IMG/VR virus record: IMGVR_UViG_2541047435_000017
Length of the DNA: 6,926 nt
Origin: a virus
Taxonomy: Duplodnaviria; Heunggongvirae; Uroviricota; Caudoviricetes
Strand: one strand, 5' to 3'
Shown here piece by piece: positions 4,955-5,996 of this stretch. A program made the position numbers and the translations under genes. Numbering within the stretch: the first letter of the stretch is position 1; the number at the start of each line of letters is the position of its first letter. The notes under the pieces are model-generated. The model saw nothing but the letters and a program-made list of their open reading frames with translations. It was not told the origin of the DNA and made no database searches.

Positions 4955-5013
4955 TTATACTCATTGCATTGTCAGAAATAGTTATCCATTAAAGGCTGGC
5001 TATTCCAAACAGG

Positions 5014-5041
5014 ATGTTGATTACAAAAATGTAATCAACAT
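5014..5041. promoter_or_regulatory. perfect 12-bp inverted repeat ATGTTGATTACA-N4-TGTAATCAACAT, candidate operator
   Basis: Read directly from the sequence, about 165 bp upstream of the substrate-binding protein gene in an AT-rich region. No T-tract follows, so not a typical intrinsic terminator. Confidence 0.35.
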
Positions 5042-5044
5042 GTA

Positions 5045-5205
5045 AGGTTTATACTCTTCAATATGCGTATAATTTTCCTTATTTTGTTGACTTTAAATAA
5101 CAAGCTATGCACGAGGTAAAGTCGGATAAGTTTATCTGGATGTAATATATATTATTTGTAGTGTTTATAACTTTATTTCATGATAACCAATAAAAGGAGT
5201 TTTTT
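5045..5205 (+). promoter_or_regulatory. AT-rich promoter/leader region of the binding-protein gene
   Basis: Perfect TATAAT at 5068-5073, TTGACT at 5087-5092, and SD AAGGAG at 5194-5199 six nt before ATG 5206. Exact promoter hexamer pairing is not resolved. Confidence 0.35.
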
Positions 5206-5964
5206 ATGAGGAACATAATGGCAGGTTTTTTAATATTCCTGTCTTCTGCTGCTTATGCTGATATCAATCTGTATGGTCCTGGTGGCCCGCATACAGCCTT
5301 GCTTGATGCAGCCAAACTTTATGCCGAAAAAACAGGTATTATAGTGAACGTTCATTACGGCCCACAGAACAAATGGAATGAAGATGCCAAAAAAAATGCA
5401 GATATCTTGTTTGGCGCATCAGAACAATCTGCTCTGGCTATCATTCGGGACCATAAAGACAGCTTCAGTGAAAAAGATATTCAGCCTCTTTATCTGCGAA
5501 AAAGTATTTTACTGGTAAAGAAAGGTAATCCTAAAAATATCCGGAGTATTGACGACCTGACCAGACCTGGGATTGGCGTAATTGTTAATGATGGTGGTGG
5601 TACCAGTAATACATCAGGCACTGGCGTCTGGGAAGATATTGCCGGACGTAAAGGGAATATAGAAACTGTCGCCGCAATCCGAAAAAATATTATTTTATAT
5701 GCGCCCAATAGCGGAACTGCACGTAAGGCTCTTGAGAATCAGCCTGGAGCAGATGTCTGGATAACCTGGGCTGACTGGGCAGCCAGTAATCCAGAAATTG
5801 GTGATGTCGTGGAAATAGCGCCAGACTACGTGATATGGCGTGATATGAACATTACAGTACGTCAGGATGCAAATGATGAAACCCGTCGATTTGCAGAATG
5901 GCTACAAACCGATGAAGCGGCGCCTGCATTCAAAAAATATGGCTGGACCAGGAAAGGCACTTGA
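5206..5964 (+). CDS. secreted periplasmic substrate-binding protein, ModA-like (type 2 PBP fold), 252 aa, no transporter partners in window
   Basis: Strong SD. N-terminal signal peptide MRNIMAGFLIFLSSAAYA with an AYA-type cleavage site and no lipobox cysteine. Mature protein has the layout of small anion-binding SBPs such as ModA, from memory of the fold. AT-rich codon usage (many ATA, TTA, AAT, AAA) contrasts with neighbouring phage genes. Stop TGA 5962-5964. Confidence 0.85.
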   Translation: MRNIMAGFLIFLSSAAYADINLYGPGGPHTALLDAAKLYAEKTGIIVNVHYGPQNKWNEDAKKNADILFGASEQSALAIIRDHKDSFSEKDIQPLYLRKSILLVKKGNPKNIRSIDDLTRPGIGVIVNDGGGTSNTSGTGVWEDIAGRKGNIETVAAIRKNIILYAPNSGTARKALENQPGADVWITWADWAASNPEIGDVVEIAPDYVIWRDMNITVRQDANDETRRFAEWLQTDEAAPAFKKYGWTRKGT

Positions 5965-5966
5965 CA

Positions 5967-5996
5967 TCCTCGTCCTTCAGGACGTGGATTCTTTTT
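5967..5996 (+). terminator. intrinsic terminator of the binding-protein gene
   Basis: Stem TCCTCGTCC / GGACGTGGA (one mismatch), loop TTCA, followed by TTCTTTTT, starting 3 nt after the stop. A second hairpin ATGCCGC-GCCA-GCGGCAT follows at 6001-6018. Confidence 0.5.

Follow-up and report, generated by a model that had tools for sequence, protein, structure and literature searches.

Background

The closest described relatives of the locus analyzed here are Paa and AdfO of pathogenic Escherichia coli, AcfC of Vibrio cholerae, and PEB3 of Campylobacter jejuni. ECs1772 is Paa and is carried on Sp9 (PMC2323221), while adfO is z2053 on OI-57, located beside ckf/hok (PMC8565820). In the latter review, which cites Batisson 2003 and Ho 2008, Paa of porcine EPEC and AdfO of O157:H7 are described as promoting adherence and intestinal colonisation. 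Transcriptomes showed that expression of ECs1772/acfC is regulated in uninduced cultures (PMC2241611; PMC8524897). AcfC is periplasmic according to fractionation, binds sulfated glycans, and affects chemotaxis rather than adhesion, adhesion to cell lines being unaffected; it was proposed to be a sulfate sensor feeding chemotaxis (PMC5976639). PEB3 is listed as a binder of 3-phosphoglycerate and phosphoenolpyruvate (PMC8835900).

The object of the analysis was a stretch of 6,926 nucleotides, hereafter the window, from the Caudoviricetes record IMGVR_UViG_2541047435_000017 of IMG/VR. A sequence-only reading of this DNA had singled out an orphan, ModA-like periplasmic binding protein gene and treated it as separately acquired and, by implication, as an undescribed module.

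Identity and distribution of the gene

The open reading frame list of the window contains this gene as an intact frame of 252 codons. Its DNA was 100% or 99.9% identical to records labelled "AcfC family adhesin Paa" or "Paa/adherence factor AdfO". The paa DNA was present at 100% identity in 577 of 5,426 complete E. coli genomes, and a stretch of 1,460 nt was 100% identical in many genomes of serogroups O157, O26, O103, O111, O121, and O145. The sequence cluster of the protein also bears the name "AcfC family adhesin Paa", residues 20–247 match the Pfam family SBP_bac_11 (E-value 5.5e-34), and in PHROGs the protein belongs to phrog_11834, annotated as "unknown function".

Judged by DNA identity and the annotated records, the supposed undescribed module is the named virulence-associated gene paa/adfO, which is accessory and not part of the conserved chromosomal core. 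Typing of Shiga-toxin-producing and enteropathogenic E. coli already relies on paa/adfO as a marker of virulence, so that its presence here is biologically nothing new. We consider it very likely, with a probability of about 0.9, that the locus represents the lysogenic-conversion cassette paa (= adfO), carried by a lambdoid prophage of the Sp9/CP-933O (OI-57)/PPompW type from Shiga-toxin-producing and enteropathogenic E. coli.

Structure and composition of the cassette

The boundaries of the cassette followed from comparison with the plasmids pCFS3246-1 and p1RM10740, to which window positions 5002/5012–6024 aligned at 86%–89%, the flanks being unrelated. The interval 4981–5996 delimited from the sequence alone is close to the comparatively defined one, deviating by no more than about 25 bases at each end (Table 1). 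Identity to the plasmid alleles was 91% in the coding sequence and 71%–79% overall in the leader. The dN/dS ratios between paa and these alleles were 0.07–0.13 (dS 0.3–0.4), which indicates that the intact protein is under purifying selection.

Table 1. Features of the paa cassette and its upstream flank (window coordinates)
Feature	Position	Strand	Remarks
PapH/PixH-like fimbrial minor-subunit remnant	4540–5004	+	5'-truncated, frameshifted; PGAP "fimbrial protein" pseudogene at about 4512–5045
Portable paa cassette	about 5005–6024	+	leader, CDS, and 3' hairpins; common to prophages and IncF plasmids
Perfect inverted repeat	5014–5041		12-nt arms, 4-nt spacer; 5' edge of the cassette
AT-rich leader	5046–5205	+	26% GC; conserved islands, including TATAAT at 5068–5073
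Shine-Dalgarno sequence AAGGAG	5194–5199	+	6 nt 5' of the ATG; read directly
Predicted Sec signal peptide	5206–5259	+	18 aa; predicted signal peptidase I cleavage after AYA
paa/adfO CDS	5206–5964	+	252 aa; AcfC/PEB3-family solute-binding protein
Terminator-like hairpin	5966–5997	+	11-nt arms with one mismatch, then T-run; stem 5966–5989, then TTCTTTTT
Second GC-rich hairpin	6001–6018	+	7-nt arms; marks where the cassette ends 3'; conserved in all three alleles

In the prophage, the cassette occupies a variable slot between the replication/ydaW-like (DUF1627) genes and the hok/sok module; in the related phage Rac from strain 442/2, lygF and HP1-5 fill this slot in place of paa. This alternative filling of the slot in a Rac-type phage, together with the occurrence of the cassette among IS elements and an enterotoxin gene on IncF plasmids, bears out the separate acquisition proposed earlier. 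GC and codon profiles across the window showed an AT-rich patch and deviating codon usage at paa. The GC content drops to 0.29 at positions 4951–5250 and is 0.263 within the leader. Codon usage had been described as unlike that of the flanking phage genes, and this is the case: the GC3 of paa is 0.348 versus 0.42–0.66 in ten phage open reading frames, and its codon-usage distance corresponds to z = 4.55, a value equally extreme in none of 2,000 size-matched samples.

The fimbrial remnant upstream of the cassette shares 86% nucleotide identity with a fimbrial gene that is intact in E. coli 730V1 and relative to which it has 10-bp and 5-bp deletions, and a tblastn search with the remnant matched PixH and fimbrial proteins. 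Homology to the 730V1 gene ends at 5004, and the last 14 codons of the PGAP fimbrial pseudogene are cassette DNA. Descent from one ancestral fimbrial-paa locus was rejected, because in 730V1 the PixH-like gene is followed by an usher gene and not by paa. Since, in addition, homology stops exactly where the cassette begins, the remnant is foreign DNA in its own right, and it and paa are two separate fragments.

Regulatory sequences

The Shine-Dalgarno sequence, described earlier as strong, is the consensus AAGGAG and is invariant between the allele studied here and both plasmid alleles. A promoter was less evident. A consensus sigma-70 scan of positions 5005–5205 found no site, and a lenient matrix scan returned weak candidates that were not consistently conserved between alleles; therefore, no mapped promoter is claimed, and the idea that the gene has a clearly recognizable promoter of its own found no support. 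The leader and the gene travel together between replicons, which suggests that the leader carries the signals needed. Transcription may also start at a phage promoter farther upstream or within the fimbrial remnant, where the best plus-strand candidate lies at 4932–4961.

The palindrome at positions 5014–5041 was matched in none of 200 shuffles. Its core is kept in both plasmid alleles, and the 14-mer TTACAAAAATGTAA also occurs about 105 nt upstream of the homologue in Providencia alcalifaciens. In E. coli the palindrome was found only together with paa (604 genomes), and its interpretation as a general operator was rejected on the ground of this confinement to paa loci. It possibly is an operator; it fits none of the FNR, CRP, TyrR, ArgR, and Fur consensus sequences.

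The gene had also been credited with its own terminator. A hairpin followed by a T-run is indeed present directly behind the coding sequence, and the terminator scan flagged positions 5971–5984, but the region contained 2 terminator-like sites versus 1.7 in shuffles, which is no higher than expected. The stem of this hairpin is present in altered form in p1RM10740, while pCFS3246-1 has lost the left arm.

Protein structure and family assignment

The N-terminus, MRNIMAGFLIFLSSAAYA followed by D, combines a short basic n-region with a hydrophobic core and an A-x-A site; a lipobox cysteine was not found in this signal peptide. Mature PEB3, as crystallized (2hxw/3fj7), begins at the residue aligned with D19 of Paa, and pLDDT is low over residues 1–20 of the Paa model. 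The earlier prediction of a signal peptide thus agrees with the Sec-type n/h/c regions, the probable cleavage between AYA and D, and the aligned start of PEB3.

A phmmer search against PDB found PEB3 (E-value 1.2e-81) and AcfC (3.5e-81), the matches beginning at Paa residues 11/16 and extending to 248. Both proteins, the structures of which have been solved, are about 52% identical to Paa. The AF2 model of Paa had a pLDDT of 91.1 and in Foldseek (target-normalised TM) matched AcfC (4jb7) at 0.97 with an rmsd of 1.1 Å and PEB3 at 0.95–0.96, so that the model shows the same two-lobed solute-binding fold as these two proteins. An alignment of 24 diverse homologues, 52%–92% identical to Paa, contained 52 invariant columns, SNTSGTGVWED among them, and Paa retains the family-invariant motifs GPGGPH, SNTSGTGVWED, PNSG, and WxTWxDW, the residues of which we take to contact the ligand in PEB3 structures.

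Outside the family, the best Foldseek match was ModA, with TM of 0.72–0.78 and 13%–18% identity (about 16%). The earlier designation "ModA-like" therefore holds at the level of fold and fails at the level of family: membership in ModA was rejected, with 18.3 bits versus a cut-off of 62.5 for TIGR01256 and 17.7 versus 470 for NF002920. Membership in the Sbp/CysP sulfate/thiosulfate-binding proteins was rejected as well (NF008022, 22.6 versus 288; TIGR00971, 21.5 versus 155.5; NF008106, 19 versus 308). Genes modBC were absent, and the flanking genes are phage genes, the fimbrial remnant, and hok.

Absence of transporter genes

Two annotated records with the same DNA encode no ABC permease or ATPase within 8–9 kb of paa. 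The orphan status read from the window is thus confirmed, and cognate transporter genes just outside it were not found. To place this in a wider context, 80 family loci across phyla were scanned for ABC genes by Walker A, signature, and Walker B motifs and by phmmer with seed ATPases and permeases. An ABC ATPase was adjacent in 2 of the 80 loci and present within 6 kb in 14, the ABC neighbours lying mostly more than 3.5 kb away. Among these 14 loci, at least one (L091) has an ATPase of the ABC-F type, which is not a transporter component, and L089 falls into the same homology cluster. Distant family members adjoin ECF sigma factors, LysR regulators, and SLAC1/TehA-type anion channels. No cognate operon was found at the homologues in Edwardsiella, Enterobacter, Campylobacter, or the V. 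cholerae TCP island. The lack of a dedicated transporter is usual for the AcfC/PEB3/Paa family.

Possible function of Paa

According to the published transcriptomes, paa is transcribed in the uninduced lysogen (PMC2241611; PMC8524897). In the proposed mechanism, the protein would be exported to the periplasm, the signal peptide being cut after AYA, and may bind a small anion as ligand in its interlobe cleft. By analogy with homologues, candidate ligands are phospho-carboxylates such as the 3-phosphoglycerate and phosphoenolpyruvate of PEB3, and the sulfated glycans of AcfC. The effect described for Paa in porcine EPEC and for AdfO in O157:H7 is promotion of adherence and of intestinal colonisation (PMC8565820).

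The adhesin label for Paa rests on mutant phenotypes. Its mode of action is uncertain, because the homologue AcfC is periplasmic and adhesion to cell lines was unaffected. Paa could be an adhesin, located on the cell surface or secreted, or else a sensor that detects its ligand in the periplasm and feeds a chemoreceptor, as proposed for AcfC and AcfB. We lean towards ligand sensing or capture, since the motifs of the probable pocket do not vary across phyla, non-pathogens included. The suggestion that the protein is a sensor partner, made in the sequence-only reading, agrees with the proposal for the homologue AcfC (PMC5976639) and for Paa itself stays at the level of a proposal. A broader generalization is tentative and rather doubtful: the AcfC/PEB3 family would consist of stand-alone periplasmic anion sensors, neither adhesins nor transport proteins, that signal through a partner in the membrane, for instance a chemoreceptor or an anti-sigma factor. 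Indirectly in its favour are the missing transporter genes at loci across phyla, the invariant pocket motifs of non-pathogens, and the sigma factor, regulator, and anion channel genes beside distant members. If it were true, the 28-bp palindrome would be the operator of a regulator travelling functionally with the cassette. Starting points for work on the AcfC/PEB3/Paa family are the limits of the cassette, its conserved palindrome, and the general absence of adjacent transporter genes.

Paa could instead take part in transport: as an accessory binding protein it would hand over sulfate, phosphoglycerate, or a similar anion to an ABC importer that the host encodes elsewhere on the chromosome, for example of the CysUWA, ModBC, or Afu type, thereby broadening the range of nutrients available to the lysogen in the gut. 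It shares its fold and Pfam family with ABC-type anion-binding proteins, its sequence weakly matches sulfate-binding proteins, and the ligands listed for PEB3 (PMC8835900) would suit such a role. Still, the curated cut-offs for ModA and sulfate-binding proteins were missed widely, and the cassette moves between replicons alone. The two loci with an adjacent ABC ATPase stand against 78 of 80 across phyla that have none, and although an Afu/Fbp-like ABC operon precedes the homologue in Enterobacter bugandensis at a distance of 690 bp, that operon already has its own binding protein. We regard delivery to an importer as unlikely.

Interference with phage entry, raised as one role in the earlier reading, would mean that Paa shields the lysogen from phages or superinfection by masking or disturbing an envelope transporter used as a receptor. 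A prophage-borne protein, predicted to be directed to the periplasm, expressed in the lysogen (PMC2241611; PMC8524897), and encoded next to another accessory module, hok/sok, would be suitably placed for this. However, no PADLOC defence model matched, in many genera homologues lie on a chromosome or plasmid and not in a phage, among them those on the V. cholerae TCP island and beside cdtABC in Campylobacter, and the published phenotypes concern host colonisation (PMC5976639; PMC8565820). An anti-phage role is therefore very improbable. The reading of paa as decaying cargo without current function, like the adjoining fimbrial fragment, is already strongly disfavoured and hardly credible. It could appeal to the position of the gene directly beside a frameshifted, truncated pseudogene and to the lack of a clear promoter in scans of the leader, but the reading frame is unbroken and has the same sequence in hundreds of genomes, the low dN/dS holds against alleles diverged at dS of 0.3–0.4, and the Shine-Dalgarno sequence is conserved. 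Moreover, published transcriptomes show regulated transcription of the gene in lysogens (PMC2241611; PMC8524897), and mutant phenotypes are reported in the review (PMC8565820).

Comparison with known systems

The ModA molybdate-binding proteins share with Paa the Pfam family SBP_bac_11. PEB3 of C. jejuni (PDB 2hxw, 3fir, 3fj7, 3fjg) is much closer, being about 52% identical over the full length, encoded, like paa, by an orphan gene, and reported to be an adhesin or antigen and to bind small phospho-carboxylates. Unlike Paa, PEB3 is chromosomally encoded and N-glycosylated. At the aligned position Paa reads DSFSE and PEB3 DFNVS, and Paa therefore has no sequon there; the Asn of DFNVS is presumably the glycosylated residue. 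AcfC of V. cholerae (PDB 4jb7), also about 52% identical, is an orphan binding protein and colonisation factor encoded on a mobile virulence island. It differs in its location on the TCP island, control by ToxT, and the adjoining chemoreceptor gene acfB, whereas paa has no accompanying chemoreceptor gene.

The alleles on IncF plasmids of porcine and bovine enterotoxigenic E. coli have the leader, palindrome, Shine-Dalgarno sequence, coding sequence, and 3' hairpin in common with the window, and their products are about 92% identical to Paa at the amino acid level. They are flanked by IS elements, the sta1 enterotoxin gene, and replication genes instead of phage genes, lack the fimbrial remnant, and are named by PGAP only as "substrate-binding domain-containing protein". 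Compared with Paa/AdfO of attaching-effacing and Shiga-toxin-producing E. coli (Sp9; OI-57/CP-933O), the gene is the same, with no difference. The neighbours in the ECs1772/z2053 loci are also alike, with a DUF1627 gene upstream and hok/ckf downstream, as is the type of prophage.

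Identity of the gene and its signals

The paa (adfO) gene forms a cassette that moves horizontally and occupies a cargo slot of the prophage; its product has the modeled fold and the conserved pocket motifs of the AcfC/PEB3 family, and no dedicated transporter accompanies it. The 1,460 bases around the ORF were 100% identical in O157:H7, O26, O103, O111, O121, and O145 chromosomes, where PGAP labels the gene "paa: AcfC family adhesin Paa", and at least 80% of this stretch was present in 577 of 5,426 complete E. coli genomes. Eleven PPompW prophage records were 99.9% identical and annotated as [quoted passage not shown]. 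The gene has been described as ECs1772 (Paa) of prophage Sp9 in strain Sakai (PMC2323221) and as adfO (z2053) of O-island 57 (OI-57) in EDL933 (PMC8565820). Two gene names are already in use for the feature, which also serves as a virulence marker. The sequence-only reading, accurate on the feature itself apart from its promoter, was thus mistaken in presenting an unusual, undescribed module.

The ORF is intact, and its product matched Pfam SBP_bac_11 over residues 20-247 (E 5.5e-34). The N-terminus (MRNIMAGFLIFLSSAAYA, followed by D) has a Sec signal peptide layout, and a lipobox cysteine is absent. PGAP places the start at ATG 5206 (252 aa), whereas in the DDBJ phage records the protein begins four codons later, at ATG 5218 (248 aa); the Shine-Dalgarno sequence is optimally spaced for the former only. 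The strong ribosome-binding site proposed from the sequence was recovered, and a hairpin marked terminator-like by a scan tool is a candidate for the proposed terminator. The proposed promoter region was not recovered: no leader site qualified in a sigma-70 consensus scan, and a lenient matrix scan of the leader gave only weak candidates.

Features of the window around paa
Feature	Position	Strand	Details
DicA-like repressor	866-1273	-	
P22-type Cro	1350-1577		
YdaT-like protein			after Cro in gene order
O-like replication protein with DnaT domain			after the YdaT-like gene
Lambda P homologue			after the O-like gene
DUF1627/YdaW-like gene	3765-4346		
PapH/PixH-like fimbrial subunit gene remnant	4540-5004		5'-truncated, frameshifted; PGAP pseudogene ~4512-5045; abuts left edge of cassette
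Best promoter-like site of the region on this strand	4932-4961	+	TTCTCA-18-TATACT; within fimbrial remnant
Portable cassette	~5005-6024		
Perfect 28-bp inverted repeat	5014-5041		ATGTTGATTACA-AAAA-TGTAATCAACAT; 5' edge of cassette
Leader	5046-5205		160 bp, 26% GC
Shine-Dalgarno sequence	5194-5199		AAGGAG, 6 bases 5' of ATG (direct reading)
paa	5206-5964	+	252 codons
Hairpin past the stop codon	5966-5989		followed by TTCTTTTT
Second hairpin	6001-6018		GC-rich
Perfect 24-bp palindrome	6084-6107		CCGATATGGGAATTCCCATATCGG
sok RNA	6153-6302		Rfam RF01794, 103.9 bits
Hok/Gef toxin gene	6243-6455		right of paa

Prophage cargo slot and cassette boundaries

The whole window corresponds to early-right DNA of a lambdoid prophage, in which paa lies between the replication/DUF1627 genes and hok/sok. 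In a Rac-type phage, the equivalent slot from ydaW to hok holds lygF and five small ORFs, so the slot is a variable cargo site. The hok/sok-type type I toxin-antitoxin module (6153-6455) is complete, with the Hok/Gef ORF overlapped by a mok-like extension; this ORF is the hok-family gene ckf (z2054), which on OI-57 always accompanies adfO (PMC8565820). The 24-bp palindrome lies in an 86-bp stretch (6025-6110) that separates the cassette from sok/hok and had no match in the plasmids, Rac phage, or 933W phage; since no T-run follows the palindrome on either strand, it is unlike an intrinsic terminator. In the otherwise identical prophage of strain PV15-279, IS1203 (IS3 family; 4794-6006 of that locus) splits the O-like replication gene while paa is intact, and this copy is probably replication-defective owing to the insertion.

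Two IncF plasmid types, pCFS3246-1 and p1RM10740, aligned with the window from 5002 or 5012 to 6024 at 86%–89% identity, and their flanks were unrelated, which together define the portable unit. Each end proposed from the sequence (4981-5996) falls within about 25 bases of it, and the occurrence of the same cassette in two IncF plasmid types bears out separate acquisition. So does composition agree with the AT-rich, phage-unlike character claimed for the gene: a GC and codon-profile check found a GC minimum of 0.29 near 4951-5250, a GC3 of 0.348 in paa versus 0.42-0.66 in ten phage ORFs, and a codon-usage distance from the phage pool exceeding all 2,000 size-matched samples (z = 4.55). PGAP calls the plasmid alleles just "substrate-binding domain-containing protein"; therefore, annotation-based paa surveys would overlook them. 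On bovine pCFS3246-1, the IS1-flanked heat-stable enterotoxin gene sta1 (5034-5249 of the fetched locus) lies ~1-2 kb from the paa allele (7172-7930).

The leader was 71%–79% identical to the plasmid alleles, with conserved islands. The 14-mer core of the inverted repeat, TTACAAAAATGTAA, was retained in both plasmid alleles and also occurred ~105 nt upstream of the Providencia alcalifaciens paa homologue (67% amino acid identity; 5875-5888 of that locus), beside an integrase-like gene. No further occurrence was found among 92 loci, and in E. coli it was seen solely with paa. The repeat may be a putative operator of a regulator.

The fimbrial remnant shares 86% identity with a gene that is intact in strain 730V1 and has 10-bp and 5-bp deletions; the final 14 codons and stop of the annotated pseudogene come from cassette DNA. 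An origin of the remnant and paa from one locus was rejected, as the 730V1 gene is followed by an usher gene rather than by paa. Since, in addition, similarity ends at 5004, two separate foreign DNA fragments are stacked in one slot. The 730V1 relative (1-4371 of the locus) belongs to a Pix-like operon adjoining pgtCBA, phosphoglycerate-transport regulatory genes, of which PgtC is periplasmic binding-protein-like; this proximity and the reported 3-phosphoglycerate binding of PEB3 may be a coincidence.

Family, fold, and orphan state

A PDB sequence search over the whole mature length retrieved PEB3 of C. jejuni (E 1.2e-81) and AcfC of V. cholerae (3.5e-81). The AlphaFold2 model (24 homologues in the alignment, mean pLDDT 91) superimposed on AcfC 4jb7 with TM 0.97 and rmsd 1.1 Å, and on PEB3 with TM 0.95-0.96. 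The ModA likeness noted earlier holds for the fold, ModA forming the next structural tier (TM 0.72-0.78, 13%–18% identity) before sulfate-binding and then ferric/sugar-phosphate-binding proteins; it does not extend to family membership, as Paa fell far below the cut-offs of the curated modA and sulfate-binding protein models. Across homologues 52%–92% identical to Paa, 52 columns were invariant, including the motifs GPGGPH, SNTSGTGVWED, NSG, and WxTWxDW, with P167 nearly invariant beside NSG. Such motifs point to a conserved small-ligand pocket rather than a generic sticky surface.

The gene is indeed an orphan, as first proposed: no permease or ATPase genes were found within 8-9 kb in two annotated records. 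Relatives were fetched in 80 loci, one genome per species, spanning Enterobacterales, Vibrio, Aeromonas, Campylobacter, Helicobacter, Francisella, roseobacters, Paracoccus, flavobacteria, and a cyanobacterium. An ABC ATPase was encoded within 6 kb in 14 loci, at least one (L091) being an ABC-F-type protein, and was adjacent in two; four further contexts checked using precomputed Pfam hits gave the same outcome. The Edwardsiella homologue stands by itself, with traT on one side and an alcohol dehydrogenase gene on the other; that of Campylobacter adjoins DUF817 and cdtABC, that of V. cholerae lies within the TCP island, and that of Enterobacter is 3' of an ABC operon already equipped with its own binding protein. 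The orphan state is a family property and no peculiarity of this prophage.

Distant AcfC-family members from marine and environmental bacteria (L060-L091, 43%–48% identity) had recurrent neighbors: an ECF sigma factor (14 loci), a SLAC1/TehA-type anion channel (nine loci in roseobacters, Paracoccus, Falsirhodobacter, and a Sulfurospirillum), a Lipoprotein_15 repeat protein (seven loci, mostly adjacent), and a LysR regulator (seven loci). These hint at an ancestral role in sensing or anion homeostasis, not ABC import.

Possible function

Paa would be exported via Sec, with the signal peptide cut after AYA, and would bind a small anionic ligand; according to the literature, it contributes to adherence and colonization. 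Published expression data show transcription in lysogens that have not been induced: levels increase >4-fold in early stationary phase (PMC2241611), and the gene is also induced in the contents of the bovine rumen and rectum (PMC8524897). Paa is implicated in pig ileum colonization, and an O157:H7 adfO mutant showed poor HeLa adherence and fewer secreted proteins (PMC8565820). Sensing or capture of a ligand is slightly favored over direct adhesion, given that free-living bacteria also have the invariant pocket.

Three other explanations are less likely. Paa could hand its ligand to a host ABC importer, which we consider improbable; the binding-protein fold speaks for this and the scarcity of adjacent transporter genes against it. 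Phage exclusion by a prophage-borne protein is far more doubtful, with no PADLOC match. Decaying cargo is the least credible: prophage and plasmid alleles differ by a dS of 0.3-0.4 with a dN/dS of merely 0.07-0.13, and Paa is under purifying selection.

The remaining value lies in the 28-bp palindrome, the family-wide absence of adjacent transporter genes, and the regulatory and channel neighbors of distant members. Among known systems, PEB3 was crystallized with L-phospholactate and AcfC with D-aspartate, according to the structure titles. In a review, 3-phosphoglycerate and phosphoenolpyruvate are tabulated as ligands of PEB3 (PMC8835900). AcfC is periplasmic, bound sulfated glycans in ELISA, left cell-line adhesion unaffected, and made chemotaxis to mucin stronger; in that study it was proposed to be a "sulfate sensor" that works together with the chemoreceptor AcfB (PMC5976639).
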